Shown: piece after piece, positions 16,507 to 58,378 of the stretch | Layout of the letters: each line of letters starts with the position of its first letter | How positions within the stretch are numbered: position 1 is the first letter of the stretch | Notes under the pieces: model-generated | The model's database searches: none | Told to the model about the DNA's origin: nothing | The model's input: the letters and a program-made list of their open reading frames with translations, nothing else | Sequence record: DRR378314_814 | Length of the DNA: 64,000 bases | Reading direction: 5' to 3' (one strand) | Made by a program: the position numbers and the translations under genes

Positions 16507-16539
16507 AGGAAGCCGCCACTGGGCAGCTTGGAAGACCAA

Positions 16540-23067: not shown

Positions 23068-23089
23068 AACAGTAGTTTAAAGTTACCCC

Positions 23090-30733: not shown

Positions 30734-30781
30734 ATTACCTTCCTTTATTCGTCACAGAATTTCAGGTCAGAAGAGCGATTA

Positions 30782-32122: not shown

Positions 32123-32202
32123 TACAGGTGAACCGGCTCTGTAAGCGCCTTATCCCGTCCAAGGACGAACCGATAATGGGTATTAGTCGATCCGCTTATT
32201 TT

Positions 32203-33846: not shown

Positions 33847-33966
33847 GCTCCCTCCTGATTGTCTTAAATTTCTCTAGATCTAGCACAAGTCGCAAAGCGC
33901 GACAAACAAACGCGCGTCTTACCGGAAATATTTATTGAGGCAATTTGTTGAATTCGCTGCAGATGT

Positions 33967-37710: not shown

Positions 37711-40629
37711 ATGAAAAAATTACTTGCATTTGTTGGCACTTTTTCTTCTGCACATCTGATGCATTTCATTGAAGCCAATCGAAGCAATTTTGAAATCTAC
37801 CTCTTTTTTAACAATACTACAGAGGAAAAACAATATCTGGATCTAATCTCGGAAGGCAAAGGAAAAGGCGCAAAGCTGATCAAGAATACGCTGGAGGAAA
37901 AGGTAGCGATAGATGATATCCCGGAAAAAATTCGCCACATGTTTAAGAACAGAGCCTTCTTGCGCTTCTTAGGATTAAACACTGCCACTGACCTTCGCAC
38001 TCAAGCAATCCTTCAATCTTGCTTACTCCACTATCGCGAATACAACCATCTGCTATATGTCAGCGAACTCTTAAAATCTGAAGACTTTTCCGATGTTTCA
38101 ATTGTCGGACAATCCTACACTTTCAAAATCCATTCAAAAGCACGTTATTTACGAAACAAATCGCACAGGCATACTAAGAAGCCTATTTCACGGGCACAAA
38201 AATACCTAAACTGTGTGATCAACTTTGCCGCCTCTGTGTTCTATTTTTTGTCGCCTTCGCCCTCAAGGTTTGTCAGCGAAACAGGAGATCAAGGAAAAAC
38301 CGGAAATGTTTATTTATTGTCTAATAACGAAGCCACAGCGTCCCCACATTTATCTGCGATTACAGAGCTGTTAGCCGAGCCGATCATACCATTGGGGTTC
38401 GTGAAAACACCTAAAAATAAAAAGTCTTTACACGCGTATATCAAACGAACGTTTATGGATTATTTGGTGCGACGAAATCTAACAATCCTTACCCCTAACA
38501 ACGAGAACGCGATCATCCGGTCTCTTGTGATCCACCTCCTGCAGGCTCAATCAATCCAAAAAGTTTTTCTGTCAAAAGATGCGAACCCGGGAAAATCAAC
38601 TCTTTTAGTCTTCGGTGAGGAACTACTGAATTCTCTTCATCCCATTATTGGCGAAATGAAGATATTTCACTTGGATCGCTTCTGCTACGCACAACGGAAT
38701 ACCGTTTGCAATAATGAGATGTTGTCTAAGCTGGATTCTATTTTTTCACTTCCTTGCGCGCCAGCCCGCAACAGTGACCTCGTACGTCATGAAAACCAAC
38801 CAAAGGTCAGCAATACATATGTTTTGTCTAAAGGCGATATATTCGCTGAAACCGAATTAAAAGATGCCATAGAACTTACCAAAATTCTGGTGAAGACAAC
38901 ACTTCAGATTGAAAACTCGCCCTATCAGAACATCCCCACCAAAGAGTTTCTGCGGGACTATATATATTCAGATATTGCACGCTCGGACATGCAATTGTTT
39001 CAAAAACTAGTAAAACAGCCGCTTTTACAAACAGTTCAAGACGTCGGAAATTTTTCGACCTATCAAGAAGAGCTTGAAGCATTTATCATAGAAAAATCTT
39101 CAATCGAGGTGTTTTTTATTCAGGAGCTGAGCCGAGAGAAACCAAAGAAAAACTCTGCGATTATTACAGATTTCAAGGCGCCACATTTAATAAAAACCAT
39201 CGCTCAGACGTCATTCAATGGAACCAGCCTAACTCAACAAAACCTCCATTCTCCTGACTTAACCGTTCAACAAATCACTGTTACTGAACATCAGCAACTG
39301 ACGCGATCTCTAGTTCTGAAATTCAAATCTCTTCCAACGTCCTTTGAAGGAAAGCTTTCGCAATTTCAAGCGGACCTTTCACCTCGCTCTCCCGCTGTTT
39401 TAATCGTCGGAAGCGTCTATAATTCAGCACACGAAAACGCCCTGATCAATATTTTCTCTGCGGCACTCCAAGCGGGCTATTCTCCATTTATTATAATCGC
39501 CGGAAAATTAAATGACGCAAAATACCAGCAACTTATGGAAACCGCTGAAAACAGTCGGAAAAACAAGTGCGGCAACTACGCACTTATTCAATTGCAGGAG
39601 CTAATTGACTTTGGGCGTCACCAGGATGGCTACTTGAAAAACGCGGTAAAACTACTGCACCAGAAAAACGAAACAGAGAAGATCCACGAAACGGAAGCAC
39701 TGGCAAACCCCTTACAATCTCTTGGCCTGCACTCACTCCAATCCTCTCACCTGCTCCAAGCGTTTGAGATATCCTTGGGAATAGAAAAAATCCTATCAGT
39801 TATAAAATTTGAATGGAGTATTTCGCTCTCTCCAGGTGTCAGTTATGGCAGAATAATTACCAAAGCTACTCAAAATCAGAACATAAAAACGTTTGGTGCG
39901 TCCACGGTTACGATTGCCGACTCTGCGATCCAAATCCCCTATGACAGTGATTTCATTGGGCTGGTCGATAGCGAGCAGATCAACTTCATTCATAACGCCT
40001 GGGGACGTCAACGGGAGGATTTTTTAAGTGTCGGATACGTCAAGGATAAGCCACGAGAGATAAACCAGCGACCGGTCACAGATAACGATCTATTATCCTC
40101 TTCACCGAATATTTTCATTGCCATGCAGCCATATCCAATTACTGCAAATCGGGAAATGCTGAGATCCGTTTTTGAAGGATGCCAAAATGAAAATACTAAT
40201 ATTTATGTCAAAATGCATCCGCGTGAAGACTTGAGCCATCAAGAAGAATACCTGAACGTTGCTGCAAACTACCCAAACGAGATGCGCTTTATTGAAAATA
40301 AAGACGACCTATTTGATCATGAAGATAAGATCGACCTGTTGGTGACCCGAACCAGCAATATCGGCCTAGAGGCAGCTCTGAGAAATATTCCGGTCATGCG
40401 TTACCTCGAATTCGACAGCTTCTTACCCAATGCGTTTTTGGAACTTCCATACGCAATAAACGTCAAGGATCGCGACGAATTAGTAGAAACAGTTTATACT
40501 TTTCTGAACGACAAAGATTTCCGATCAAGAACTGCACAATCAAGAATTGGCTATCTGAAGGAAAATCCCAGTTTAGCCAACAATGATGGTTGCAAGAGAA
40601 TTATTGAGTTCATGGAAATAAATAGCTAA
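37711..40629 (+). CDS. Large capsule protein with C-terminal GT-B-like domain, putative nonulosonate transferase/polymerase
   Basis: 972 aa ORF; C-terminal KMHPRE and VTRTSNIGLEAAL motifs. Function inferred. Confidence 0.55.
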   Translation: MKKLLAFVGTFSSAHLMHFIEANRSNFEIYLFFNNTTEEKQYLDLISEGKGKGAKLIKNTLEEKVAIDDIPEKIRHMFKNRAFLRFLGLNTATDLRTQAILQSCLLHYREYNHLLYVSELLKSEDFSDVSIVGQSYTFKIHSKARYLRNKSHRHTKKPISRAQKYLNCVINFAASVFYFLSPSPSRFVSETGDQGKTGNVYLLSNNEATASPHLSAITELLAEPIIPLGFVKTPKNKKSLHAYIKRTFMDYLVRRNLTILTPNNENAIIRSLVIHLLQAQSIQKVFLSKDANPGKSTLLVFGEELLNSLHPIIGEMKIFHLDRFCYAQRNTVCNNEMLSKLDSIFSLPCAPARNSDLVRHENQPKVSNTYVLSKGDIFAETELKDAIELTKILVKTTLQIENSPYQNIPTKEFLRDYIYSDIARSDMQLFQKLVKQPLLQTVQDVGNFSTYQEELEAFIIEKSSIEVFFIQELSREKPKKNSAIITDFKAPHLIKTIAQTSFNGTSLTQQNLHSPDLTVQQITVTEHQQLTRSLVLKFKSLPTSFEGKLSQFQADLSPRSPAVLIVGSVYNSAHENALINIFSAALQAGYSPFIIIAGKLNDAKYQQLMETAENSRKNKCGNYALIQLQELIDFGRHQDGYLKNAVKLLHQKNETEKIHETEALANPLQSLGLHSLQSSHLLQAFEISLGIEKILSVIKFEWSISLSPGVSYGRIITKATQNQNIKTFGASTVTIADSAIQIPYDSDFIGLVDSEQINFIHNAWGRQREDFLSVGYVKDKPREINQRPVTDNDLLSSSPNIFIAMQPYPITANREMLRSVFEGCQNENTNIYVKMHPREDLSHQEEYLNVAANYPNEMRFIENKDDLFDHEDKIDLLVTRTSNIGLEAALRNIPVMRYLEFDSFLPNAFLELPYAINVKDRDELVETVYTFLNDKDFRSRTAQSRIGYLKENPSLANNDGCKRIIEFMEINS

Positions 40630-40677: not shown

Positions 40678-41820
40678 ATGGAAAAGAAAAAAGTATGCGT
40701 CATCACAGGATCGCGTGCTGAATATAGTATCCTGAAGCCGACTCTAATGGCCTTACGCGAAAGTGATGAAATAGAGCTACAGCTGATTGTCACAGGCATG
40801 CATTTGGCGTCGGCATATGGCAATACGTATCAAGCGATTGTGGAAGATGGATTTTCCATTACCTCAAAAATTGATATGCTGATCGACAGTGATCTTGCCA
40901 CATCTCTGCCAAAGTCGGTTGGCCTCGCAACGATTAGCTTCACAGATCATTATGAATGGCTGAAACCTGACCTTGTCTTAGTTCTTGGCGACCGTTACGA
41001 AATACTTGCTGCGGTTCAGGCGGCATTTCTCCTCAATTTAAAGGTACTGCATCTGCATGGCGGCGAGACGACCGAAGGAGCTCTGGATGATGGCATCCGC
41101 AATGCTGTCAGCCACATGTCTTTCCACCATATGCCAGTCGCAGCCGAATACAAAGCAAAGCTGGTGCAAATGGGCGTTGATGAAAAAGACATCACTGTCA
41201 TTTCTACCCCGGGCCTGGAAAATTTCAAAACCACAACGGCACTTACCATAGAAGAACTTGGGCAAATGGTTGGACTTGATCTTTCTGACGGCTTTTTGCT
41301 GCTGACATACCATCCGGAAACCAAAAACCCCGAAAAGACAATTCCCACGCTCAAAAACATCCTAAGTGCTGTCGAAAAAATAAACCACTTACGGGTGCTG
41401 ATGACCAAATCAAATAGCGACACCGGCGGTTCTGCTATCAATGCGCATTTAGAGGCATATTGCGCTGCCCACCCCGAACGATGTGTACTTGTCTCTAACC
41501 TTGGGACAGAAGGCTACATATCCGCTCTAACCCATGCAACGATAGTTTTGGGCAACTCTTCCAGCGCAGTGATTGAGGCACCCGCGATCGATACGCCTTC
41601 AATTAACATTGGCAACCGTCAAGGTGGCCGATTAATGGCGAAAAGTGTTATTAGTTGCGGAACTGAAGAGGACGAGATCTGGACTGCCATGCAACAAGCG
41701 GTTGATCCAGCATTCAAAAGAAAGCTGCAAAAAACAACTCCTCCTTATGGCAGACCAGCTATTGTTTCCAAGCAAATCCATGATACAATCAGAAAAATTT
41801 TGTCTATAAATCAGGATTAG
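40678..41820 (+). CDS. neuC: Hydrolysing NDP-sugar 2-epimerase (NeuC/LegG)
   Basis: TGSRAEY, VTGMHL, LGDRYE, HGGE, GNSSS and NIGNRQ.GR motifs. Confidence 0.92.
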   Translation: MEKKKVCVITGSRAEYSILKPTLMALRESDEIELQLIVTGMHLASAYGNTYQAIVEDGFSITSKIDMLIDSDLATSLPKSVGLATISFTDHYEWLKPDLVLVLGDRYEILAAVQAAFLLNLKVLHLHGGETTEGALDDGIRNAVSHMSFHHMPVAAEYKAKLVQMGVDEKDITVISTPGLENFKTTTALTIEELGQMVGLDLSDGFLLLTYHPETKNPEKTIPTLKNILSAVEKINHLRVLMTKSNSDTGGSAINAHLEAYCAAHPERCVLVSNLGTEGYISALTHATIVLGNSSSAVIEAPAIDTPSINIGNRQGGRLMAKSVISCGTEEDEIWTAMQQAVDPAFKRKLQKTTPPYGRPAIVSKQIHDTIRKILSINQD

Positions 41821-41822
41821 AA

Positions 41823-42959
41823 ATGAGCTCCCCTGAAGAAAATACCTACTTGGCATATGATCAGCTTAAAGATCATTGCCTGCGAGAGTCTGATCCAATT
41901 TCCAAAGCGCTGAAGATCATTGATAAATCCGACCAAAAAATCGCATTAGTTGTCAATGAATCTAATCGTTTGTTAGGAACGATAACAGATGGGGATATCA
42001 GAAGGCAGTCTTTAGTCAGAATGCCTTTAGACACACCCGTGCAACAGATAATGAATTCAAAACCGAAAACTTTGAAAACACCAGAACTCGGAGCTGACCA
42101 TTATGACAGGCTAGTTGCAAATCATCTGCTTTTTGAATTTCCGGTCCTAAACACACAACAGCAAGTAACCGGCATGCTATGCTTTAGCCGCAAGGTGTCT
42201 ACAAAAGCAACAACCGTGGTCATTATGGCTGGAGGAAAAGGAACCCGATTAGCACCTCTGACAAGAAACACTCCTAAACCCATGCTGGAAGTCGCAGGCG
42301 AGCCTATCATTGAGGGCACGATCAAAAGACTGAAAAAGCAAGGGTTCGTAAATTTCTTAATCTCCGTAAATTATCTTGCAGAAACTATTAAAGACTATTT
42401 GGGTGACGGTTCAAAATATGGTGTCTCCATCAACTACCTGGAAGAGACCAAGCCACTTGGTACAGCCGGCTGCTTATGGATGGCGAAAGACAGGATTGAA
42501 TCTACATTTCTTTTAATGAACGGTGATGTCATTACCAACATTGACTTTGCCAACCTTCTCATTTCACATGAAAATCAAGGTTCTCAAGTCACAATGGCCG
42601 TTCGAAATTATCAGATCAGCATCCCATATGGGGTTGTCGAGATGCCTGAAGCTAATCGGGAATCTCATCAAATCACTGGCATTTCTGAAAAGCCCAACTA
42701 TAGTTTCTTTGTCAATGCAGGTATCTATGCATTATCTCCAGAAATTTTTGAACATAGCGATGACGACTCCTACCTGGACATGACCACACTGTGTGAACGG
42801 ATATGGCAACAATCAGGCACCGTTTCTTCATTTCCAATTCGGGAATACTGGATCGATATTGGTGAAATTTCTGAACTAAAACGCGCAGAGGCCGAGTATG
42901 ATACAATCTTCTCTGATCCAAATTCTCACGCGCCAAATTTGACTGGAACTTTTTCTTAA
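41823..42959 (+). CDS. CBS-domain sugar-phosphate nucleotidyltransferase (PtmE-like)
   Basis: GTITDGDIRR CBS pair; MAGGKGTRL.PLT...PKP, PLGTAG, NGD and WIDIG motifs. Confidence 0.88.
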   Translation: MSSPEENTYLAYDQLKDHCLRESDPISKALKIIDKSDQKIALVVNESNRLLGTITDGDIRRQSLVRMPLDTPVQQIMNSKPKTLKTPELGADHYDRLVANHLLFEFPVLNTQQQVTGMLCFSRKVSTKATTVVIMAGGKGTRLAPLTRNTPKPMLEVAGEPIIEGTIKRLKKQGFVNFLISVNYLAETIKDYLGDGSKYGVSINYLEETKPLGTAGCLWMAKDRIESTFLLMNGDVITNIDFANLLISHENQGSQVTMAVRNYQISIPYGVVEMPEANRESHQITGISEKPNYSFFVNAGIYALSPEIFEHSDDDSYLDMTTLCERIWQQSGTVSSFPIREYWIDIGEISELKRAEAEYDTIFSDPNSHAPNLTGTFS

Positions 42960-42961
42960 AA

Positions 42962-43615
42962 ATGGAAAAAATAGTTGTAATTGGGTCCGGTGGACATGCA
43001 AAAGTCATCATCGACGCAATTTTGGCGGCTGGAAAATTTGAATTACTGGGGATTATTGCTGAACCGGCTAACCAACTAAAGCAAGTGTTAGACATACCCG
43101 TTATTGGAAATGATGCGGATTTAAAGTCACTCGCTAACCAACACAAAAATCTCAGAGCAATTATCGCAATTGGGAGCAACCGCAGCCGCTCAAACTGCTA
43201 CAGCAATGTCAATCGCTTGGTCCCTAATCTTAAGTTTACTGCCGTCATTCACCCCGCGGCGACGATTAGTCCTTTCTGCTCCATAGGAGATGGAACTTTT
43301 GTTGGGCCGGGCGCCACCATAAATGCCGGCGCACAAGTTGGCGATCATTGTATCCTCAACACAAACTGTTCAGTTGATCATGATTGCAAGCTGGAAGACT
43401 TCAGCCATATCGCACCGAATGCCGCTCTTGCAGGAAATGTCCATGTATCCAAATACTGTCTTGTGGGAATTGGGGCCACTGTAATCGAGAATATTACACT
43501 TGGGGAAGGGTGCTGCGTTGGCGCCGGAGCGGTTGTAATTAATCCAACCCTAAGTGACAGTACCGTACTTGGCGTACCGGCAACGTCGACCAAAGCCGAT
43601 CAAAAAAATTCATAA
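42962..43615 (+). CDS. NeuD/PglD-family sugar acetyltransferase
   Basis: GSGGHAKV, AIGSN..R, hexapeptide repeats, VDHDC, GVPA. Confidence 0.9.
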   Translation: MEKIVVIGSGGHAKVIIDAILAAGKFELLGIIAEPANQLKQVLDIPVIGNDADLKSLANQHKNLRAIIAIGSNRSRSNCYSNVNRLVPNLKFTAVIHPAATISPFCSIGDGTFVGPGATINAGAQVGDHCILNTNCSVDHDCKLEDFSHIAPNAALAGNVHVSKYCLVGIGATVIENITLGEGCCVGAGAVVINPTLSDSTVLGVPATSTKADQKNS

Positions 43616-43632: not shown

Positions 43633-44454
43633 ATGGTATCCAGAGAACAGTTACGCATTATCGGGGCCGGGAAAAGTGCCGTCATTTATCAACTTGATGA
43701 TAAAACCGCACTAAAGCTCTTCAATCCACGTACCAAAATCGAAATCGTTGAAAATGAAATCCATGCGCTGCAACTTGCCAGCGTACAAGGCCTGCCTGTC
43801 CCCAACATACTTGCCACCCAGCTGTCAGAAGAAAAAAGTGTGACGCTCACCTATCTGGCTGGACATAATTTATATCAAGAATTCGCGGCCCGCCCATGGC
43901 GCCTGATCACCTTATTGACACAAGCGGCAAAACTTCAACACCTCATCCATCAAAAGGATGGTACAGGGCTGCCCAGGGGTAAACCCGAGTTGGAAAGAAA
44001 CGTTTTAAACGCAAAATTTCCAACGATCCTAAGGGATGCAATTCAGAAGGCGATTAGAGAATTACCGGAAAACCGGCCATCTCTTTGTCACGGTGATTAT
44101 CATTTCAGCAATCTGCTGTTTGGCGGAGACACGCTATACGCTCTGGATTGGGCAAAAGCCAAACAGGAAGATCCAGCCTTTGATGTCGCACAAACTTTGA
44201 CGCAGATCCTGTATGGCGGACCTTCAAACTTCGCGTTCAAGTCTTTAGAAAAATTCGGCCGGTCCCTGATCGCGAAGAAATTTTTGCAAGCATATCTAAA
44301 GTGTTTAGCAAAAAATCAGCGACATGACTTCGCTTGGCGAGTGAACAAATGGCTTCCAATATGCACTGCTGCGAAATATAATTTCGCGACACATGAACTT
44401 CAAAAAAGCATCCAGGAAAAACTGAACACATATTTCCTGCCAGGCGGAACTTAA
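43633..44454 (+). CDS. APH/choline-kinase-fold phosphotransferase
   Basis: IGAGKSAVIY, ALKLF, CHGDYHFSNLL and LDW motifs. Confidence 0.8.
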   Translation: MVSREQLRIIGAGKSAVIYQLDDKTALKLFNPRTKIEIVENEIHALQLASVQGLPVPNILATQLSEEKSVTLTYLAGHNLYQEFAARPWRLITLLTQAAKLQHLIHQKDGTGLPRGKPELERNVLNAKFPTILRDAIQKAIRELPENRPSLCHGDYHFSNLLFGGDTLYALDWAKAKQEDPAFDVAQTLTQILYGGPSNFAFKSLEKFGRSLIAKKFLQAYLKCLAKNQRHDFAWRVNKWLPICTAAKYNFATHELQKSIQEKLNTYFLPGGT

Positions 44455-45548
44455 TTTGGCCGATCCTGATCGCCATCCCCTTTCGACCAATAAATTTTAT
44501 CGATAGAAAGCTGATCCGACTCAGGCTTCACTCTCAAATCCTTAAAAGCTGTTGATATGATATGGGGCTGCTCAACATAGGGCTGCAACAAAGATGGTAT
44601 CTTAGACATAATCTCATTATGGGACTTGTCAGAAAGCCACCCCTGTTCTTCAAATAGAGGCTGAAATGAAGAAGCAGAATTATAAAAGTCCAAGACTGAC
44701 GCGTTTCGTTGCTCCGACCAGTCACTTAGCATGGTCAATAAATCCTGCCCGGTAGAATTGTCCGCGTAAAAGCACTCAATGAGGCGCACGAACCTTACAT
44801 CAGCACCTCTCGCATCCTCTTCTCGAAAAATAACCGCGCCCGTGATCCTTCCCGCCTCATTGACACTTGTAAAACAATGATAATCAAAAACAGGGTGATC
44901 CACATAGCGCCAGTTTAGGAAGGTACTATCCTTTTTCACACCACAATACCCTTGCGAGATCAGTCTTGAAAAAAATTCGTCCCATTGACCATCGAAGCGT
45001 TCAACTTTTTGGATTTTGCACGGCTCGAACTGAAGCTTATCGGGGCCCTCAGGCGACGCGATCTCAACGATCTTATCCAATGATGTAAATTTTGATCGAT
45101 CCAGTATCTTCACGTATCTTGGCAGATTGTCCTGCACGAGATATTTCATCTTTTTATAGTAGGGATACAGCTTTGGGTTAATTCCACTGGTCGCGATTAA
45201 ATTCGTCCCAATGTCCTTAACACTCATGAGCAACTGAAACCCGACACCGCCATATCGATAATCCTGGTGTGCCATTAAGTTACAGAGCCACCCACAGGAT
45301 AGTTCCTCGCCATTCAGGACGAAATCAGTTCGGATCACCCCTTGCATACCGACGACCATATTGCCATCCCATACCGTTATGGCGGAAAGGCCACCTGGCT
45401 TTGCTTGCGGGTTATTCTGTCCAGCAAACTGCCAGTTCAAAAAATCAGGATTTCGACTTAAGAAATGCTGTTTTCCCCATTGCTCTGAAAAAAACTGGTG
45501 CACGGCTTCTGTTTCACCTGAAGTGGGATATCTTTGCTCATACCCCAT
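44451..45548 (-). CDS. Long GNAT-fold acyltransferase
   Basis: FLNWQF, NLMAHQDYRYGGVG, FLNWRYVDHP (tandem GNAT-like halves), C-terminal KGDGDQDRPN. Confidence 0.7.
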   Translation of the reverse strand: MGYEQRYPTSGETEAVHQFFSEQWGKQHFLSRNPDFLNWQFAGQNNPQAKPGGLSAITVWDGNMVVGMQGVIRTDFVLNGEELSCGWLCNLMAHQDYRYGGVGFQLLMSVKDIGTNLIATSGINPKLYPYYKKMKYLVQDNLPRYVKILDRSKFTSLDKIVEIASPEGPDKLQFEPCKIQKVERFDGQWDEFFSRLISQGYCGVKKDSTFLNWRYVDHPVFDYHCFTSVNEAGRITGAVIFREEDARGADVRFVRLIECFYADNSTGQDLLTMLSDWSEQRNASVLDFYNSASSFQPLFEEQGWLSDKSHNEIMSKIPSLLQPYVEQPHIISTAFKDLRVKPESDQLSIDKIYWSKGDGDQDRPN

Positions 45549-45550
45549 CC

Positions 45551-46468
45551 CTATTTCGCCTCGGCAACGATTACATATGAATAGCCGCCAGACAGACCCC
45601 TTTGTTTGCTTTGAAGAAACTTGCGCTCCTCCAAAATAGAAAATGCTGAACCCAGCACCGCTTTGATTTCATTTGCATCCTGCCAGTGGCGAATATGGTC
45701 GGGCGCGCGCATATTAACGGGACAATTCAGAAACAGTAACCCACCATCACCCAGCCCTGCCCGCAAATTACCTACAGCGGCCAAAGGATCTGAAACGATC
45801 TCCAGCACCTGGCTGACCACCACGGCATCTACTTTTGGCATCTGTTCATCCTGCTGGCAGATGTCCCTAAGTAGAAATTCACTCTCTATGTCCAGACCAA
45901 GACGTTTTAAGCAGGTCTTCGTCTTCTCCAAAGCAACTTTACTAATATCAATCCCAACAAAGCGACAATCGCGTCGCTTATTGGCCAATATCGCGGCATA
46001 CAGCCCATGACCAGGACCGACCTCACAAAGGGTAGCGTTTTCAGGTAACAGGTTGAGAAAATGGCGATTAAAATAATTTGTTGGCCCAATATGCTGAAGC
46101 CACAAGGCTTGCGACAAAAGTAACCCATTCATGTAGTCCGCCATTTTCTCAGCGGAATCATAGAAATCCCTTAAAACTTCGTCGGAGGTATCATAAGTGA
46201 AGTTTTTCTTGGTTCGAAACCGATACTCGGTTGCCATCATCATTTGGCAGGTGAATTGATATCCGCGCAGAAATTCTGACAGGTCCCCTGAGCACAGTTT
46301 GTTAATCTTCGCGGCAACCGCATCCGCCGTCTCTAATTCCTCTTCGGAAAAAGCGGCAACAGTCTTTCGAGTTCCAAGCTCACTTTCAGGCCAAAATTGG
46401 GATAATGCATTAAGTAGATTATCAACGTTTGGATAGGTTGAGCTGTTCACAGCAATCGCTTCTGGCAT
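45551..46468 (-). CDS. Class I SAM-dependent methyltransferase
   Basis: EVGPGHG motif I, GIDIS, SQVLE, GGLLF; ATG at 46468 (GTG alternative at 46483). Confidence 0.85.
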   Translation of the reverse strand: MPEAIAVNSSTYPNVDNLLNALSQFWPESELGTRKTVAAFSEEELETADAVAAKINKLCSGDLSEFLRGYQFTCQMMMATEYRFRTKKNFTYDTSDEVLRDFYDSAEKMADYMNGLLLSQALWLQHIGPTNYFNRHFLNLLPENATLCEVGPGHGLYAAILANKRRDCRFVGIDISKVALEKTKTCLKRLGLDIESEFLLRDICQQDEQMPKVDAVVVSQVLEIVSDPLAAVGNLRAGLGDGGLLFLNCPVNMRAPDHIRHWQDANEIKAVLGSAFSILEERKFLQSKQRGLSGGYSYVIVAEAK

Positions 46469-47382
46469 CGCAACAGTTCCCACTTGCTAGCTTGATTTAT
46501 GTCCATCATATCTGCGCTGCAACAATCAACCGAAACAACTTCCAAAACCTGCGCATCTCCGCATACGACGCCAACACATTCATCTGGCAGCGCCAGAATT
46601 TCTCCCGGTAAGCCAGAAGACTTCTGTTTCAAGTTGGACACTTTTTGAATATGCCATTTCGTGTTGTCATTGCCAATCGCCCAAGGCATGTAACTGGGCG
46701 TTGCAATCGGAAAATAATCTGCTGCGCGGATGAAATTATATATACTTTCCGCGGGTTGGGTCCAATCAATATGACCATCCCCAACATCGTTTGAATAATA
46801 TGCACGCCTATTCGAGCTATTTTGCTTGAAGGTTTCGAACACAGTTTCATTTTCGATTTCATCGATAAAATCGGCAGTCATTTGGTTGGCCAACTTGGTG
46901 CATTTTTTTAAAACTGAAAGTCCCGTATCGGTCTCAGATATTGCTAGCTTGTTCTGAAAATATATCGGACCACTATCGAACGCCTCCTCCATCACATGCA
47001 AAGTCACTCCTGTAAATTTTTCACCGTTCCTAATCGCCCATTGATATGCCAGGCGTCCAGCATATTCAGGCAGCAATCCAACATGCACGTTAACGGCTTG
47101 CCTTCCATATATATCGAGGACTTCCTTGCCGATCAGATGATGATAATTATTCACACTTAAAAGCCAGTCAGAATCCTGGCTTAATTTCGGGTCTCGAATA
47201 TTTTTTCCTGGGTAGACCTGCCGAGCTTCTTGCTGCTTTTTTTGACTAGCTCTACTATAGACTTCGTCGGAAAAAATAGGGCCTAACTGGATGCGAGGAG
47301 ATTTTTCGATTTTGGCAATCGCCAACTGTATGGGAGCTCCTTCACCGATCAGCGAGACACGAATAGGAGAATTGCTCATCAC
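46447..47382 (-). CDS. N10-formyl-THF-dependent formyltransferase (Fmt-like)
   Basis: NVHVGLLPEYAG, GVTLHVM..AFDSGPI, IDWTQ.A..IYNFIRA. Confidence 0.88.
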   Translation of the reverse strand: MMSNSPIRVSLIGEGAPIQLAIAKIEKSPRIQLGPIFSDEVYSRASQKKQQEARQVYPGKNIRDPKLSQDSDWLLSVNNYHHLIGKEVLDIYGRQAVNVHVGLLPEYAGRLAYQWAIRNGEKFTGVTLHVMEEAFDSGPIYFQNKLAISETDTGLSVLKKCTKLANQMTADFIDEIENETVFETFKQNSSNRRAYYSNDVGDGHIDWTQPAESIYNFIRAADYFPIATPSYMPWAIGNDNTKWHIQKVSNLKQKSSGLPGEILALPDECVGVVCGDAQVLEVVSVDCCSADMMDINQASKWELLRCQKRLL

Positions 47383-47654
47383 GCTTCATCTGTTACCGGC
47401 ACCACGCCTTCTTGCGTCAGAAGATACAGCGCATGAATGTTTGTCAATTTATCCATGGGGAGAACCCCCATATCGAATTCATATCCAGAGAATTCTTCTA
47501 TCGCCAAACACAAATCAATAAACCCGAAACTGTCAATGATATTAGTTGCCAGTAAGTTGTCTTCATTCGCTATGCCATCAACAGCTTCAGGTTCCAACCC
47601 ATTTTGCTCCAGCAAAATCCTATTAACTTCCTGGCGAAATTCGTTGATGTTCAT
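47379..47654 (-). CDS. Stand-alone acyl/aminoacyl carrier protein (DltC-like)
   Basis: 91 aa, acidic; IIDSFGFIDL..AIEE phosphopantetheine Ser motif; ATGA overlaps on both sides. Confidence 0.8.
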   Translation of the reverse strand: MNINEFRQEVNRILLEQNGLEPEAVDGIANEDNLLATNIIDSFGFIDLCLAIEEFSGYEFDMGVLPMDKLTNIHALYLLTQEGVVPVTDEA

Positions 47655-48610
47655 GCACTTATCTCTTTTGAGTTGACGTGAAAATTTATAAACTCGTTAA
47701 TATCAACACGAGGAAGTTCCAACTTGCTCGGTTTCTCATTTTCTAAATTAGCTCGAAACCCGTACTTCACGCCAAGGCCTCTTAAGATCTGCAACGTATT
47801 GTCGTCATAGGAATTACTGGGATGCGACATGACTTGTGGGGTATACCCCAGTATGCTGGTTAAATGGCTTGAATTTTTAGAATATTGGCGCACCTGTTCT
47901 TCAATGCCTAGCCGCCGAAAATTAACGGGGTGAGAATACGAATGCAGCCCCAACTCCTGCTCCTGCGAGACAAGGTCTTTGAGGGATGCATCTGTTAGCC
48001 AGATACGTTCCTTCCATGCCTCAACATCAAAATCTCTATGCCGCATCATGTTGAGGTTGAGGTCTTCGAACTCTTGAGGGGAGAGAAGCACATCGCGCGC
48101 AAATCTAAATTTCTTGTCTGTTGGTGTATAGATTGTAAATTCAGATAAATGGTTGATTGCCTCTGAGGACGCAAACTTTTCTTCCCAGTTCACATCCGTC
48201 CACGTGTCCTTCATACTGGCAAAAAAATGCGCATAGTAATCTTCGACTGTTTCATATCCGATATTTCTAAAGAAACGGAACATTTCAAAGAGTTCCATTT
48301 CCTGTTCAAAAACACCCGAATAAACAAACCAGAACGCCTTGATATCATATTCACGCATAATCGGCAGTGCGATGTCATACTGGCTTCTCAACGCATCATC
48401 AAAGGTCAGAACCACATCATTTTTTCTCAAAGACCCGTTCTCGTAGCCACTTAGCCAGGCTTTAGCGTCCAGAATATTGAGGTCCAAGGATCCATCTAAT
48501 ATTTTCCTGAAGTCATCACTAGATAAGGCACCTTGAATGTAGGGATGCTGGTCTTCGTCATAAAAATGATGGAACATCAACCCAAAAGGATGTGATGGAT
48601 ATTTTTTCAT
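47651..48610 (-). CDS. Polysaccharide deacetylase family (CE4-like)
   Basis: MFHH, LTFDD, GLHSYSH and SHPSNSY motifs. Confidence 0.8.
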   Translation of the reverse strand: MKKYPSHPFGLMFHHFYDEDQHPYIQGALSSDDFRKILDGSLDLNILDAKAWLSGYENGSLRKNDVVLTFDDALRSQYDIALPIMREYDIKAFWFVYSGVFEQEMELFEMFRFFRNIGYETVEDYYAHFFASMKDTWTDVNWEEKFASSEAINHLSEFTIYTPTDKKFRFARDVLLSPQEFEDLNLNMMRHRDFDVEAWKERIWLTDASLKDLVSQEQELGLHSYSHPVNFRRLGIEEQVRQYSKNSSHLTSILGYTPQVMSHPSNSYDDNTLQILRGLGVKYGFRANLENEKPSKLELPRVDINEFINFHVNSKEISA

Positions 48611-48765
48611 GTATTATCTACTCAAAAACATATGTGACTTACCCAAGAACACTACCTTAATTACTAACAGGTTTAGCATTACATTCCAAACATTGGCGAT
48701 TGAGTTACCGATGAAAAGCTGTAGTTTTGTCCTACCTTTAATCTAGTTACCCTTGCAACAGAAAT

Positions 48766-50337
48766 ATGATAAAAACCACCTCTCGAAAACTCCTGGCGGC
48801 TCTTGACCATTTCCCACAGAATAACTTCCTTATCTCTGATGGAGTTACGGTTACATATGAAGCTGCTTGGAAACAGATTATTCAGCTTACAAATGTCATC
48901 ACAGATCACGCCCCTGACCAACAATGTGTTGGCATTTTGTCCAATAGAGACCTCTCGGCCTACGTTGGGACGCTCGCGTGTTTGGCAGGTAATAAGGCTT
49001 TTATTCCGCTCACTCAAAAGACTCCAAGAAAACGAGTTCAGGAAATTGCGACCTCTATTGATTTAAAAACAATAATAGTTGGAAAAGGACTAGAAGAGCA
49101 TTTTCTGGAAATCTTTGAAAACTTCTCCGAGGAAATCGTTGGCCTGTGCCTCGACAAGACAGATGAAACCCAGCGTGGGAGTGCAAAAATACGTCAAGCC
49201 GTGCATCATAACTCCACCACTATTGAAAGCACACGGTCCAGCTCCTCAAACGACTATGCCTATATTTTATTTACATCAGGATCGACTGGTGCCCCTAAAG
49301 GTGTGCCAATTACATATGAAAACCTGAACACCTATATTGAAAACGCATCAGCTCTATTTCAATATCAGCCGACCGACGTTGTCACTCAGACTTTTGAATT
49401 AAGTTTTGATCTGAGTATACACGATCTTATGTGTACCTGGTGTAGTGGTGCCGCGTTGCTCCCCCTTTCTCGACAACAGCTCCTCTCTCCCCAAAAGCTG
49501 CTAACCAAATATCATGCAACCGCATGGTTTTCCGTTCCGTCTCAAGCCGCTTTAATGTCCCGTGCCAGACAATTAAAACCCGACTCCATGGAAAGCCTCA
49601 GATTGAGTTTATTCTGCGGGGAGGGATTACCAGCCTCTTTGGCGCAGCAATGGCAAGCCGCAGCTCCAAACTCAACCCTCCATAACCTGTATGGCCCGAC
49701 AGAGGCTACTATTGCCATCTCCTCATATAAAATTGCAAACAATTCCAAGCAGGAATCCCCCACCGAAAAACAGACTGGTGAATTTGCTCCTATTGGGAGG
49801 CTATTCCCAAAGCATCAGTTCAAAATTGATATACCGCGATCAACCAATTCCAGCGATCGGCAAAGAGGTGAATTACTGGTATCTGGAGATCAGGTCTTCA
49901 CCGGCTACTGGAAAAACGAAAAAGCGACTCTCGAAAAACTGGTGAAATCGGAAGATGGCACCTTATGGTACAAAACCGGTGATATTGTATCCCTAAATTC
50001 AGAAGATGACCTGGTTTTTCATGGACGTGCAGACCATCAAATCAAGTTTAGAGGCCACCGAATAGAGCTGGGGGAAATAGAAACCAAAGCAAGAGAGGCC
50101 GCAAATACCGGACTGGTAGCAGCCCTAGCACAAACAGACCAAAACGATATTGTGAATGCTATATGTCTTGTGATCGCCAGCACGGAGCAAGACAAGTCGT
50201 CAATTCAAGATTATCTTGAACGCCATCTTCCCGCATACATGCTTCCGACAAAATATCTACTGATAGACAATCTGCCGACTAACGCCAGTGGAAAAATCGA
50301 TAGAAAAGCGTTATCTAAACTGATTAGCAGTCCTTGA
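48766..50337 (+). CDS. Stand-alone amino-acid adenylation enzyme (DltA-like)
   Basis: YILFTSGSTGAPKGV, SFDLS, FCGE, NLYGPTEAT, YKTGD, QIKFRGHRIELGEIE, LP.YMLP, SGKIDR. Confidence 0.88.
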   Translation: MIKTTSRKLLAALDHFPQNNFLISDGVTVTYEAAWKQIIQLTNVITDHAPDQQCVGILSNRDLSAYVGTLACLAGNKAFIPLTQKTPRKRVQEIATSIDLKTIIVGKGLEEHFLEIFENFSEEIVGLCLDKTDETQRGSAKIRQAVHHNSTTIESTRSSSSNDYAYILFTSGSTGAPKGVPITYENLNTYIENASALFQYQPTDVVTQTFELSFDLSIHDLMCTWCSGAALLPLSRQQLLSPQKLLTKYHATAWFSVPSQAALMSRARQLKPDSMESLRLSLFCGEGLPASLAQQWQAAAPNSTLHNLYGPTEATIAISSYKIANNSKQESPTEKQTGEFAPIGRLFPKHQFKIDIPRSTNSSDRQRGELLVSGDQVFTGYWKNEKATLEKLVKSEDGTLWYKTGDIVSLNSEDDLVFHGRADHQIKFRGHRIELGEIETKAREAANTGLVAALAQTDQNDIVNAICLVIASTEQDKSSIQDYLERHLPAYMLPTKYLLIDNLPTNASGKIDRKALSKLISSP

Positions 50338-50340
50338 CAA

Positions 50341-51501
50341 TCAATCCAGCAGCCACGGGGCTGATGGAATATTGACAACTGTATCACTAATTTCCATTGC
50401 GCCAGCAAGAGGCCCGATGATGTCACAGTCTGAATAGAAAGGCAGTTGATGCATCGGCGTCCAAACAGGCCTGACTTCCAACTTCTGACCTGATGCCGCT
50501 TCTAAAAACTCATCTCGCAATTTCTTGCTTTCAAATTTTATCGCCTGCAACCAGTAATTGGAATAATTGTCTGGATTTTCAGATCGAAATGCAACGCCGG
50601 GAATCCCTGAGAAAAGATCGCTATAAGCTCTCGCCAGTTTACGTTTTTTCTCTATCTTGTCTGCTAGATCTTCAAGTTGGCCTAACCCAAGAGCGGCGTT
50701 CAAATTTGGAAGTCTGTAATTGAACCCCAACTCATCATGGCTGAAGTTAATCCCATCCGCCACGCGCGCCGTGGTTGTGACATGCTTCAAGCGGGCAGCA
50801 AGCTTTTCATCATTCGTAGTGATCATTCCACCCCCACCAGTGGTAATGATTTTATTGCCGTTAAAGCTGAAAACACCTACGTCACCAAAGGAGCCGCATT
50901 TTCGGCCATTTTGATGCGAGCCGAGGGATTCTGTTGAATCCTCAACCAAAGCAACACCGAATTCCTGACAAAGAGCTTCGATTTCCTCCAACCCAGCAGG
51001 ATGGCCAAAAATATCAACAACGACACAGGCCGCAACTCTCTGCTCTTTGTAATAAAGGCTTCCGTTCTTTGCGGAGCAGCTTTCAGTAAAGAACTTCTTC
51101 AACTCTACAGGAGACATCCCGTATGTTTCCAGCTCGCTATCCAGGAAAACCGGCCGGGCGCCTGTGTATTTCACCGCATTTGCCGTCGCAACAAACGTAA
51201 TCGAAGGACAGAGCACAACGTCACCTGCGCCTGCACCGAGCACATGTAAGGCGGCGTGCAAAGCTGCCGTTCCATTAACGGTGGCTACTCCATATTTACA
51301 TCCCGCTAATGCAGCAACCTTTTCTTCAAATTCAATGACATATGCCCCTACCGTCGATACAAAGGTAGACTCCAAACAGGCCAGCAAATAATCTTTTTCA
51401 GAACCATCAAAGGTTGGGGTGTGCAGAGGGATATAATCAGCAAACCCAAGATCATTTCTCAAGAAATTTTCAAGGCGGTCGAATTGTTGCATTCGGGTCA
51501 C
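50341..51501 (-). CDS. legC: LegC-family PLP aminotransferase
   Basis: IPLH.P.F, STFVSTVG, NGTAALH, EDSTESLGS and SFNGNKIITTGGGG motifs. Confidence 0.88.
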   Translation of the reverse strand: MTRMQQFDRLENFLRNDLGFADYIPLHTPTFDGSEKDYLLACLESTFVSTVGAYVIEFEEKVAALAGCKYGVATVNGTAALHAALHVLGAGAGDVVLCPSITFVATANAVKYTGARPVFLDSELETYGMSPVELKKFFTESCSAKNGSLYYKEQRVAACVVVDIFGHPAGLEEIEALCQEFGVALVEDSTESLGSHQNGRKCGSFGDVGVFSFNGNKIITTGGGGMITTNDEKLAARLKHVTTTARVADGINFSHDELGFNYRLPNLNAALGLGQLEDLADKIEKKRKLARAYSDLFSGIPGVAFRSENPDNYSNYWLQAIKFESKKLRDEFLEAASGQKLEVRPVWTPMHQLPFYSDCDIIGPLAGAMEISDTVVNIPSAPWLLD

Positions 51502-51505
51502 ATTC

Positions 51506-52519
51506 TTATTTTGGGTAGGTTAGGGAATAGTTTCCGAAAAAGTTATTTCCGCTGGAAAAATCACTGAAATACCCCTGATCAAGCAAGGCAACAATTTCAG
51601 CAACCCCGGCTTCAACTGAGTATTTTGGCTCAAACCCCAAATGGCTTTTGACTTTATCAAAGTTCACACGATAGTTCCGCGGATCACCACCATGCTCCTG
51701 ATAGGTAATGTTGCAATTTGGAAGTTGATCTTCGATGATGGAAACAACCGATCTCTTTGTGTGGTTATTTGCTTCGCCGCCCGCATTGAACACTTCGAAG
51801 TTGACCGCCTCTTTAGGAGACTGGATCACCTTTAAAATAAGACGCGCAAAATCTCTGACATGGCAATAGGGGCGCCACGTATCTGCATCGAACACAACCA
51901 GCTCATTTCCCGCCCATAATTCACGCGTAAATTCATTCACAGTCAGGTCAAAACGCATTCTGGGTGCGGCACCGAATGCCGTTGCGAACCTTAAAACTAC
52001 GCCGCTGTAATCAACTTCGTCTTTCTTGGACAAGAAAAGCTGTTCAGCGTCAACTTTGGATTTCGCATACAGTGAGAGTGGCTTAAGCTCACTTTCCTCT
52101 GTGGCAAGTTTCCCGCCTTCCATCAAGCCATAATTAGAGCATGTGGAGACGAATATCGCTTTACCCAATCCTTTGCCAGACAATGCATTCAGGCAATCCT
52201 GTATTCCCTTGTCGTTGACTAATCCGGCTTCTGTCGGAAATTTTTTGGTAATTGGATCGCCAACCAAGCCCGCCAGAATAACAACGTGCTGTACGTCTTT
52301 CAATGCTTGCTCTAATTGATCAGATTTCGTTAAATCTCCAACGACCTGCTCGTAATTATCGTGCAGCAACAATCCAGCAGTAGCCAACTGTGTCGGATAA
52401 AGAAAATTATCAAAATTCCTGACAGCATACCCATGGTTCAACAGAAAAGATGCAACTGGCGGCCCAATGTAACCGCCGCCTCCGATTATTAGTACACGTT
52501 CCATAATGTATTGTGACAC
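51506..52519 (-). CDS. NAD-dependent epimerase/dehydratase
   Basis: GGGGYIG, STCSNYG, YAKSK and RMRFDL motifs; co-oriented with legC. Confidence 0.85.
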   Translation of the reverse strand: MSQYIMERVLIIGGGGYIGPPVASFLLNHGYAVRNFDNFLYPTQLATAGLLLHDNYEQVVGDLTKSDQLEQALKDVQHVVILAGLVGDPITKKFPTEAGLVNDKGIQDCLNALSGKGLGKAIFVSTCSNYGLMEGGKLATEESELKPLSLYAKSKVDAEQLFLSKKDEVDYSGVVLRFATAFGAAPRMRFDLTVNEFTRELWAGNELVVFDADTWRPYCHVRDFARLILKVIQSPKEAVNFEVFNAGGEANNHTKRSVVSIIEDQLPNCNITYQEHGGDPRNYRVNFDKVKSHLGFEPKYSVEAGVAEIVALLDQGYFSDFSSGNNFFGNYSLTYPK

Positions 52520-52750
52520 CGTTGTAGATTTATTTAAATTTTAGCTTCTTCGTGAGCTTGAGTTCGCCCTCACGCATAAACTGGAACCTCTATCACTAGT
52601 TCACCATGTTAATGTTTTCAAGCAATTAATGTTTGCCCAAAACACACTATCTAAAGTCGTGTTTTTTGTATTTGTATTACGCCGAGCTTTATGTTTTATC
52701 GGAACCTTGAAACAGAACATTTCTTCGCAAGCGAAAAATGGAGAAACCGA

Positions 52751-53764: not shown

Positions 53765-53803
53765 TCGTTTTTCGATTTATTTAATCAATTAGTGGTCTCG
53801 AAC

Positions 53804-56605: not shown

Positions 56606-57652
56606 GTGAGGATCGACTTGGCTAATATCGTAGAAAACCCTTCGGTGTTTATCATTGCCGAAATCGGCGTTAATCATAACGGACAACTAGATATCGCTGT
56701 TGAGCTTATTCGCAAGGCCAAGTCTGCAGGCGCTGATGCTGTTAAATTTCAAACATTTAAAGCAGATAACCTCGTTCTAGAAAATGCGCCTAAAGCGCTA
56801 TATCAATTGCAGAACGAGCCAAACTCTACCGCCAGCCAATATGAGATGCTGAAGAAGCTAGAGTTAAGTGTTGAGGATCATCTCGTCTTAAAAAAAGAAT
56901 GTGAAACTCAGGGTCTCGAATTCATATCAACGCCATTTGACATTGATTCCCTTGAAATCCTGACTGAAATTGGTGTTCCGCTGATCAAGATCTCATCTGG
57001 CGATGTAACCAATATCCCCTTACTGCATAGTATTAGCCTTAAAAATTTACCCGTTATCCTGTCTACAGGTATGGCCTCTCTTGGTGAAATTGAACTTGCG
57101 TTAAAAACGCTACGCAGCAGTTCAAGCGCCAAAATCGCATTATTGCATTGCATCAGCAACTATCCGGCAACGCCCTCTGCAACCAACCTGATGGCGATCA
57201 AAACCCTCGGCGATACCTTTAATCTGCCTGTAGGATGGTCCGATCATACAATTGGTAATCTAACGGCAATTGCCGCGGTTACCCTTGGCGCAACTATCAT
57301 TGAAAAACACATCACTCTTGATAAGAATATGGAAGGTCCGGATCACAAAGCATCCATCGAAATTGAAGAGTTTGCTGCATACGTGGAAGACATACGAACC
57401 ACGGAGCAAGCTCTTGGTAACGGCGTAAAGAAACCGCAACCCGAGGAATTTGAAGTTGCAAAAATTGCGCGAAGATCGATCGTTGCGAGCAAAGATATTT
57501 CGGCGGGTGAAACCCTAAGCTTCGACAATCTCACCATGAAGCGGCCCGAGGATGGTTTACCAGGAAGTGCCTTTGAATTTTTGCTCGGCAAAAAACTCAG
57601 AAGCCCAATTCGAAAGAATGAAAAACTCGAACTGTCGATGATTGATCAGTGA
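56606..57652 (+). CDS. neuB: Nonulosonic acid synthase (NeuB/LegI)
   Basis: IIAEIGVNHNG, DAVKFQ, STPFD, LSTGM, SDHT, IEKH.TLD, GPDH and C-terminal SAF domain. Confidence 0.95.
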   Translation: MRIDLANIVENPSVFIIAEIGVNHNGQLDIAVELIRKAKSAGADAVKFQTFKADNLVLENAPKALYQLQNEPNSTASQYEMLKKLELSVEDHLVLKKECETQGLEFISTPFDIDSLEILTEIGVPLIKISSGDVTNIPLLHSISLKNLPVILSTGMASLGEIELALKTLRSSSSAKIALLHCISNYPATPSATNLMAIKTLGDTFNLPVGWSDHTIGNLTAIAAVTLGATIIEKHITLDKNMEGPDHKASIEIEEFAAYVEDIRTTEQALGNGVKKPQPEEFEVAKIARRSIVASKDISAGETLSFDNLTMKRPEDGLPGSAFEFLLGKKLRSPIRKNEKLELSMIDQ

Positions 57653-57664
57653 TTGGGCCAAGAC

Positions 57665-58378
57665 ATGTATAACGGAAAAACCATTCTAGGTATTATCTTG
57701 GCAAGGGGCGGCTCCAAGGGGTTACCAGGGAAAAATGTCAAACAATTAGGGACCAAGCCATTGTTGGCCTGGACCATTGATACCGCTCTTGAGAGCAACA
57801 TATTTGATCGCTTACTTCTTTCAACTGATTGCGAGGAGATCAGAAAAGTTGGGATTGAACATGGGGCTGACGCGCCCTTTCTCCGACCTGCTGAACTGGC
57901 TGAGGATAACACAAATTCGCTCGATGCTATCCGGCACGCCCTTACATACCTGGAAAACGAGAATGAAACCTATGATCTCGTTGTGCTTTTACAACCCACC
58001 AGCCCCTTCCGATCAGCCGACGATATCATCGGTACAGTTAGTCTGTATCTCAATGAGAAAAACACCGACACAGCCGTAAGCGTTAGCGAAAATGCCAAAT
58101 CTCCTTATTGGAGTTATTTACGAAATGACGACGGAGACCTGGAAAATCTGCTCCCTCCCCAGGAAACTGGCTGGAGACGACAAAACCTTCCAGTGACTTA
58201 CTCACTAAATGGTGCAGTGTATTGCACGACCTGGTCGCATCTCACAGACGGAAAAAACTTCACCGACGGCAAAACTGCTGGATATATCATGCCATCTATT
58301 CGTTCGGTTGACATCGATACACCGCTTGATTTCTTGATTTGCGAAGCAATCTTAAGCTCAAAGCTATCTTTAGAGTAA
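57665..58378 (+). CDS. neuA: Acylneuraminate cytidylyltransferase (NeuA/LegF)
   Basis: ARGGSKGLPGKN, LQPTSPFR, RRQ, NGAVY and SVDIDT motifs. Confidence 0.93.
   Translation: MYNGKTILGIILARGGSKGLPGKNVKQLGTKPLLAWTIDTALESNIFDRLLLSTDCEEIRKVGIEHGADAPFLRPAELAEDNTNSLDAIRHALTYLENENETYDLVVLLQPTSPFRSADDIIGTVSLYLNEKNTDTAVSVSENAKSPYWSYLRNDDGDLENLLPPQETGWRRQNLPVTYSLNGAVYCTTWSHLTDGKNFTDGKTAGYIMPSIRSVDIDTPLDFLICEAILSSKLSLE

Follow-up and report, generated by a model that had tools for sequence, protein, structure and literature searches.

A six-gene cassette among nonulosonate genes

The 64,000-nucleotide stretch of DNA analysed here (sequence record DRR378314_814, hereafter the window) contains, at 44451..50337, a cassette of six genes that may encode a carrier-protein-dependent pathway for exchanging an N-acyl group on a capsule nonulosonate. 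All six open reading frames (ORFs) are intact, at the coordinates first noted. Five lie on the minus strand and encode a CE4 metallo-de-N-acetylase (47651..48610, 319 amino acids (aa), PF01522), predicted to free a nonulosonate amine; a discrete carrier protein (47379..47654, 91 aa) with a phosphopantetheine site at Ser42; an N10-formyl-tetrahydrofolate formyltransferase (FT; 46447..47382, 311 aa, PF00551 and PF02911) with residues N98, H100 and D136; a class I S-adenosylmethionine methyltransferase (MT; 45551..46483, 310 aa, a Methyltransf match, with an alternative ATG at 46468); and a tandem GNAT protein of the Eis / N-myristoyltransferase fold (44451..45548, 365 aa, Acetyltransf_1), predicted to be a carrier-dependent N-acyltransferase. 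The CE4 and carrier genes overlap by 4 bp, the carrier and FT genes by 4 bp and the FT and MT genes by 37 bp, and a gap of 2 bp separates MT from GNAT. The sixth gene, on the plus strand, encodes a stand-alone adenylation (A) enzyme (48766..50337, 523 aa, PF00501), the predicted glycine:carrier ligase, with D-alanine as the second choice of substrate. It is divergent from the other five and convergent with legC. The 155-bp region between the CE4 and A genes (48611..48765) yielded no sigma-70 consensus site.

The cassette splits a set of nonulosonate genes. To its left on the plus strand are the sugar-supply genes neuC/legG, a ptmE-like nucleotidyltransferase gene and a neuD/legH-like acetyltransferase gene (40678..43615; TIGR03568 and TIGR03570 above cut-off). 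To its right lie the legC aminotransferase gene, above the TIGR04181 cut-off, with a short-chain dehydrogenase/reductase (SDR) gene directly upstream of it (50341..52519, minus strand; SDR at 51506..52519), followed by the neuB synthase and neuA cytidine monophosphate (CMP)-synthetase genes (56606..58378, plus strand; TIGR03569 above cut-off and PF02348). An earlier note on this DNA, made from the sequence alone, had described a packed minus-strand operon with a divergent A gene splitting the nonulosonate genes, and its ORFs, families and flanks all proved to be as claimed. The surroundings form an ABC-transporter capsule region with a kpsS-like gene, a type I polyketide synthase (PKS), an aminotransferase, a sulfatase, wza, kpsC/E/T/M and the neu genes. 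The G+C content of the cassette (42-47%) is that of the capsule genes and lies under the 49-51% of the left flank. By hydropathy, the six cassette proteins all lack hydrophobic leaders and membrane segments, which the sulfatase and Wza controls do show. The same note had found no DltB, DltD or condensation domain here, and our Pfam scan of 52 ORFs in the window likewise gave no match to MBOAT/DltB, DltD, a condensation domain or any lipid A acyltransferase family. A NodA-family transferase and a NodC chito-oligomer synthase also had no Pfam match in the window.

The GNAT and the deacetylase belong to a widespread module

Among 848 candidates, 107 GNAT homologues were recovered at E 0.001 or better, and across them the C-terminus carries a near-invariant DGDQDRPN motif. 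The structural model of the window GNAT (predicted local distance difference test, pLDDT, 90.6) has a tandem GNAT fold, matching 4my0 with Z 20.6 (root-mean-square deviation (rmsd) 3.1, 289 residues aligned) and yeast N-myristoyltransferase 2p6e with Z 20.2 (rmsd 5.2, 313 aligned). In GNATs of the Eis / N-myristoyltransferase type, the C-terminal carboxylate is the general base. The C-terminus of the window protein aligns with the C-termini of these enzymes, yet 30 of the 107 homologues run 2-13 residues beyond the motif. The catalytic motifs of the CE4 protein are intact: the TFDD motif, the H(S/T)xxH metal motif and the second catalytic His are all present, and H14, F70-D71-D72, H223, H227 and R301 are invariant in 14 aligned neighbours of GNAT-family genes. 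We take H14 to be the permuted catalytic His, as in IcaB/PgaB.

Gene neighbourhoods were counted at the best 80 of 383 confirmed GNAT loci, where we found a CE4 gene at 64, a carrier at 55, a loader at 55 and a neu gene at 41. The loaders were FkbH (35 loci, an assignment confirmed above the family cut-off), AMP-binding enzymes (19) and FabH (5). CE4 was present at 39 of the 41 neu-bearing loci, and at 26 of these 39 no legC was seen, so that no aminotransferase supplies an amine there. Flanks of 8 kb or more on both sides are available at 44 of the 80 loci, and restricting the count to these gave CE4 at 39, a carrier at 31, a loader, mostly FkbH, at 33 and neu genes at 27, and all 27 of these neu loci carry CE4. 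As a control, neuB lay near the GNAT gene at 26 of the 44 loci versus 3 of 46 loci (at least 6 kb) for the MT family, which also occurs in polysaccharide regions. A sample of 400 genomes was drawn evenly from the class of genome G002. Of these, 146 have a NeuB-like gene, and among the 9 with the GNAT it is present in 8 (p 0.002). Each of the 6 sampled genomes whose GNAT match is full-length holds such a gene; after merging three that are possibly related, the count was 4 of 4 (p 0.017).

Protein fusions tie the GNAT family to carriers and loaders. The longer GNAT matches were FkbH-GNAT fusions in 6 of 6 cases, with a carrier domain detectable between the two in 5, and two further homologues (P0087 and P0079) are carrier-GNAT fusions. 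Because the GNAT tree shows loaders intermixed, the GNAT-deacetylase core appears to accept different acyl donors. FkbH is the commonest loader in this widespread loader-carrier-GNAT-deacetylase module, of which the cassette is one variant and not an isolated case.

A viral scan returned one locus, of the FkbH type. When E. coli genomes were searched for a serotype with a known sugar structure, only a prophage copy was found (L228:14953-17756, NZ_CP070103.1), in which GNAT and CE4 stand behind a phage tail gene without carrier or loader, with IS1 between. An E. albertii plasmid (L081:11627-13655, CP043243.1) also carries GNAT and CE4 without carrier or loader, its CE4 being split over two ORFs. 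Both placements are common for serotype-conversion genes. A cultured rhizobium, Sinorhizobium americanum, has on plasmid NZ_CP013110.1 (L229:3736-19208) an unannotated cluster of kpsC-M-T-E, neuA-B-C, CE4 and GNAT, and its CE4 is 38% identical to that of the window.

The cassette is conserved as a set

All six genes were found in two further genomes, G004 and G391. In G004, A-CE4-carrier-FT stands at one contig end and FT-MT-GNAT at another; in G391, which came from the evenly drawn sample, CE4-carrier-FT-MT-GNAT-A forms one run at 33-42% identity. Five genes without FT (A, carrier, MT, GNAT and CE4) occur in G001, G002, G003 and G005, where no FT was found with the window FT as query; in three of these four the carrier gene directly precedes that for MT. 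A quick tree was built from 64 rows, 17 of the 80 loci being too short or too low in score to be included. It places the window GNAT in a seven-row clade (Shimodaira-Hasegawa-like approximate likelihood ratio test, SH-aLRT, 96), every member of which has MT. An A orthologue of 38-44% identity was present in all five genomes checked from this clade. The cassette is real and conserved as a set, and it is probably uncharacterised.

A glycosyltransferase-like protein of 972 aa (37711..40629, plus strand) has relatives that adjoin cassette genes in G001, G002 and G391. It gave only weak matches, far under cut-off, to the BFO_1060 family and Capsule_synth, and is a candidate transferase for the modified sugar. 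This placement would be in keeping with a modification carried out on a soluble sugar whose synthesis takes place elsewhere.

The carrier and the adenylation enzyme

Even at E 0.1 the window carrier matches no Pfam family; in the PDB its top match is to an aminoacyl carrier protein (E 0.011), and the Ser of the two is aligned. Ser42 is invariant across 12 aligned carriers, a profile of which matches solved carriers at 5e-13, and the orthologue from G004 (50% identical) passes the PP-binding (PF00550) cut-off. Judged by its conserved Ser in the carrier profile, the 91-aa protein is an acyl or peptidyl carrier.

For the A enzyme, the motifs SFDLS, FCGE and YGPTEAT reported previously begin at residues 213, 283 and 309; in the carrier, the DS motif is at 41-42. 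The enzyme scored under both DltA cut-offs (271.7 against 476 and 261.4 against 559.85). Its ten-residue pocket signature, DLHFLCLIAK, is identical in all six orthologues. The pocket region matched 8k4r (which we take to be VinM), 6akd and 4oxi at ~1e-25, and DltA at 6e-14. A review table identifies 4OXI as the glycine-activating AlmE and 6AKD as IdnL7 (PMC11253843). At the visible pocket positions, read from alignments, the window enzyme is identical to AlmE at 7 of 9, to DltA at 5 of 9 and to IdnL7 at 5 of 9. It has D215, L216 and C284, and thus equivalents of AlmE Leu248 and Cys316, and its loop reads NLYGPTE, like that of AlmE, where DltA has NTYGPTE. The Cys/Ala/Thr trio behind the L-preference of IdnL7 is not found in it. 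The earlier note had suggested an amino acid, perhaps D-alanine. Loading of an amino acid is supported, and because the pocket is closer to that of the glycine-specific AlmE than to that of DltA, glycine is likelier than D-alanine. From its pocket residues we consider it fairly probable that the A enzyme activates glycine and rather doubtful that it activates D-alanine.

Members of the same GNAT family stand beside A enzymes with the signatures DLFNCNMVQK, DLFNFNMVQK and DIFFWALLDK (loci L036, L043, L024, L053 and L075). These other signatures imply further amino acids on such sugars.

The methyltransferase and the formyltransferase

A carrier or FkbH gene lies near 57 of 80 loci of the MT family, and a CE4 gene near 0 of 80. 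One family member, P0115, is a carrier-MT fusion whose carrier belongs to the clade of the window carrier (97 bits). The MT model (pLDDT 94.5) has no close solved relative, and fold searches returned only generic class I matches of 22% identity or less. At loci L082-L161 the usual companions of the MT family are FkbH and a carrier, often joined by a glyoxalase-type epimerase, in polysaccharide regions that lack this GNAT. Other transferases must therefore serve the MT family at such loci.

In the FT, N98, H100 and D136 are invariant, and the protein belongs to a clade of ten with SH-aLRT 100 in a 65-row tree. Six members of that clade agree with MT or GNAT homologues in the length of their longest contig, an indirect hint that the genes are linked. 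Among the matches of the FT are a fusion of carrier and FT (35% identity), an AAC(3)-carrier-FT fusion and formylation domains of nonribosomal peptide synthetases (NRPSs). The FT gene lies between those for carrier and MT in all three six-gene sets, and it occurs at 3 of the best 80 of 383 GNAT loci. With four related cassettes lacking it, FT is an optional part of the cassette. GNAT and MT thus have relatives fused to carriers, as does FT, whose fused relatives are more distant, and the sequence evidence on FT is mixed.

An SDR takes the place of LegB

Of the genes for CMP-legionaminic acid, LegC, LegG/NeuC, LegH/NeuD, LegI/NeuB, LegF/NeuA and PtmE are present. The LegB 4,6-dehydratase was not found among the 28 window ORFs scanned with NCBIfam, the best score being 57.6 against a cut-off of 475. 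The SDR upstream of legC has STCSNYG at the site of STSEVYG in a LegB-like protein, so that the Glu of STSE is replaced. Its best PDB match is 6vo6 (3e-40; next match 1e-18), which we take to be Cj1427 of C. jejuni. Cj1427 is described as a C4-dehydrogenase driven by alpha-ketoglutarate, in a text that gives no PDB code (PMC10680097). Close homologues of the SDR were present in 7 of 401 sampled genomes (loci L209-L215), directly upstream of legC in 7 of 7, and all read STCSNYG. LegB above cut-off was found in none of the five genomes tested.

These features suggest, with about equal weight for and against, that the SDR is a C4-dehydrogenase; oxidation without dehydration would leave a 9-hydroxyl. 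This 9-hydroxyl idea is only a lead, because those genomes also have large matches of PglF size, from which a 6-deoxy substrate could come instead. The label of a legionaminic-acid capsule locus given to this DNA was accordingly not established, with no LegB in the window and the SDR in its place, and the backbone sugar, as far as the gene content indicates, need not be legionaminic acid.

The proposed pathway and its alternatives

Read as a whole, the cassette would carry out a cytoplasmic N-acyl exchange on a capsule nonulosonate, a reading that we favour by a little and in which each reaction is one that we infer. The A enzyme would activate glycine and load it onto the carrier at Ser42; no phosphopantetheinyl transferase gene lies in the window. 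The MT would N-methylate and the FT N-formylate the tethered glycine, to give a sarcosyl, formylglycyl or formylsarcosyl group. The CE4 enzyme would remove the N-acetyl group derived from N-acetylglucosamine (the future N5) from a soluble intermediate, likeliest at or before the CMP-sugar, and the tandem GNAT would transfer the acyl group from the carrier to the freed amine. LegC would make the N7 amine, which the NeuD/LegH-like enzyme would then acetylate, and a GT972- or GT606-type transferase would add the sugar to the ABC-exported capsule. The parts of this scheme differ in strength. Acyl transfer from a carrier to an amino sugar is highly probable and a nonulosonate the likely target. N5 is the probable position, favoured because many family loci keep the deacetylase yet have no aminotransferase. 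The methyl group is probably added on the carrier, and for the formyl group addition there is slightly favoured. The earlier note had likewise proposed loading on the carrier, tailoring and GNAT transfer to an amine freed by the deacetylase. Co-occurrence and carrier fusions support that outline, its chemistry is still a prediction, and the FT has turned out to be optional. An N-formyl-N-methylglycyl acyl group, considered alone, is less likely than not; that this group is built on the carrier and swapped onto N5, and that the backbone is in addition 9-hydroxy through a Cj1427-like dehydrogenase coupled to LegC, is a combination we think improbable. Neither that group nor a 9-hydroxy backbone was found as a natural nonulosonate in the literature searched.

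Several observations weigh against the exchange pathway. No neu gene was seen at 17 of the 44 well-flanked GNAT loci, the counting profiles were built from the same loci, and these loci are not phylogenetically independent. The six-gene set of G391 lies ~490 kb from neuB, and the neuB genes of G002 are on other contigs than its cassette. Matches to the MT fold do not separate N-, O- and C-methylation. The carrier-FT fusions fall outside the window FT clade, and the best solved relative of the FT is the sugar-nucleotide enzyme ArnA (2e-22) versus the LgrA F domain (1e-9). Finally, AlmE is stated in the review to activate D-alanine as well, without loading it (PMC11253843).

Four alternatives would explain parts of this evidence. 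The swap may be real with the formyl and/or methyl group going straight onto the sugar, formyl onto N7 or N5 and methyl onto the freed amine, as NodS does, so that the GNAT adds a plain glycyl group. The closeness of the FT to ArnA and its absence from four related cassettes speak for such direct tailoring, as do a Leg-type cluster of Kuenenia whose deacetylase and formyltransferase are linked to formylated CMP-nonulosonates (bioRxiv 10.64898/2026.04.20.719630) and a Halorubrum formyltransferase linked to 5-N-formyl-Leg (PMC6137143). We nevertheless consider it unlikely, given an MT family that keeps company with carriers or FkbH and at none of 80 loci with CE4 and that is fused to a carrier of this clade, an FT placed between carrier and MT in each six-gene set with carrier and NRPS fusions in its match list, and a NeuD/LegH-like enzyme already available for N7. 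Slightly less likely is the same pathway loaded with D-alanine, which would yield an N-methyl/N-formyl-D-alanyl group. Leu236 and Cys301 of the pocket are common to DltA, AlmE activates D-alanine in vitro (PMC11253843), and alanyl-Leg exists in E. coli O161 (PMC7685785). Set against this, the O161 alanyl group is credited to a single alanyltransferase, Lea3 (PMC7685785), the pocket region matches AlmE better than DltA by the E values above, and position 322 is Leu, as in AlmE, and not Thr, as in DltA; according to the review, space for the methyl of D-alanine comes from a change of Leu to Thr (PMC11253843), at what we take to be position 322.

The cassette might instead acylate another amino sugar or glycan, its place among neu genes being a result of capsule-locus shuffling. 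The G391 set, far from neuB and adjoining large secreted-protein genes, the well-flanked loci without neu genes, and the prophage and plasmid copies of GNAT and CE4 without carrier or loader all fit this view. Yet G391 and G002 still encode NeuB elsewhere, every sampled genome with a full-length GNAT has a NeuB-like gene, and in the window neuD and legC enclose the cassette and the only nucleotide-sugar supply genes seen are of the nonulosonate type; we regard another acceptor as improbable. In the ArnA/ArnD system a formyl group serves as a temporary cap, and CE4 enzymes can be deformylases. By analogy, the GNAT might acylate the LegC-made N7 amine and CE4 later remove the formyl group, as the ArnA-like FT and the free amine supplied by LegC would allow. 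CE4 accompanies the GNAT at 64 of the best 80 of 383 loci versus 3 of 80 for FT and therefore has a job without formyl groups, and many such loci have no legC, which makes a temporary cap very improbable.

Neighbouring genes

A gene similar to APH/choline kinases (43633-44454, plus strand) follows directly after neuD and overlaps the GNAT stop; it scored below all cut-offs, and its product could phosphorylate a sugar intermediate. Genes similar to Gfo/Idh/MocA oxidoreductases mark stereochemical variants of legionaminic acid, and two such oxidoreductases lie at 52691-54766 (plus strand), one with relatives in L001, L013 and G001. The block at 21862-35342, presumably of the rkp/wcb type, encodes a KpsS-like protein, the type I PKS (2547 aa), a class I/II aminotransferase, the sulfatase, an SDR and a short GNAT (34752-35342). 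A pair formed by a DUF1611 protein and a mandelate racemase/dipeptide epimerase (16528-18515, plus strand) has no relation to the cassette.

Relation to known systems and implications

In Nod-factor synthesis, the CE4 enzyme NodB frees an amine, NodA re-acylates it from the dedicated carrier NodF, and NodS methylates. The cassette resembles this system in pairing a CE4 enzyme predicted to free a sugar amine with a carrier-fed acyltransferase and an accompanying methyltransferase, and differs from it in having a 365-aa tandem GNAT as transferase, an amino-acid A enzyme as loader and an acceptor that would not be a chito-oligosaccharide. With DltA/DltC it shares a discrete A enzyme and carrier and a small-residue Leu/Cys pocket; unlike the Dlt system, it has an A enzyme under the DltA cut-offs, no DltB/DltD in the window and no membrane segment in its six proteins. 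AlmEFG of Vibrio cholerae likewise combines a stand-alone glycine A enzyme, a discrete carrier and a separate transferase acting on a surface glycoconjugate (PMC11253843, PMC12930378), but AlmG esterifies a lipid A acyl chain, whereas the cassette has a tandem GNAT, CE4, MT and FT among nonulosonate genes. For cj1295-cj1302 of C. jejuni, which are associated with di-O-methylglyceroyl-pseudaminic acid, N5 deacetylation and re-acylation with a methylated small acyl group have been proposed (PMC3068675). That flagellin locus includes an FkbH gene (PMC7099621); it differs from the cassette in its aminopeptidase-like hydrolase, in place of CE4, and in its glycerate-derived acyl group. SbzI/SbzG of the altemicidin pathway, by their description, also use a GNAT that takes an acyl group from a carrier (PMC11685415), in that case in an antibiotic pathway with a dinucleotide acceptor. 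E. coli O161 makes an aminoacylated nonulosonate, Leg5Ac7Ala (Lea1-7), in which, unlike here, the alanyl group is credited to Lea3 alone; the review's account of it mentions no carrier or deacetylase (PMC7685785). Flagellin islands of Aeromonas and enterobacteria contain carrier and AMP-ligase genes that have been read as fatty-acid synthesis genes (PMC7874193, PMC4875605).

The logic of carrier-dependent N-acyl exchange is thus already known from NodABF, AlmEFG and the Campylobacter proposal, and the version with A enzyme, formyl and methyl transfer is a variant of it. In the full-text literature, with few subscription papers and with supplements excluded, we found no account of the GNAT-CE4-carrier set or of any nonulosonate with a glycyl, sarcosyl or formylsarcosyl group. 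Bacterial nonulosonates bear numerous N-acyl groups, and a paper of 2017 described the genetics behind such substitutions as a major challenge (PMC5378307).

The locus supplies a full set of six soluble proteins and makes a definite prediction of mass: relative to acetyl, the shifts would be +15.011 Da for glycyl, +29.027 for sarcosyl, +43.006 for formylglycyl and +57.022 for formylsarcosyl. As a lead only, the flagellin of C. jejuni carries nonulosonates with an unexplained +15 Da, equal to the glycyl-for-acetyl shift of 15.011, in an account where glycyl goes unmentioned (PMC7099621). A carrier-dependent transferase of this type could serve the chemoenzymatic synthesis of sialic-acid analogues. 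Because the core appears to accept different loaders, the loader and tailoring genes present could be used to predict which acyl group such sugars carry.

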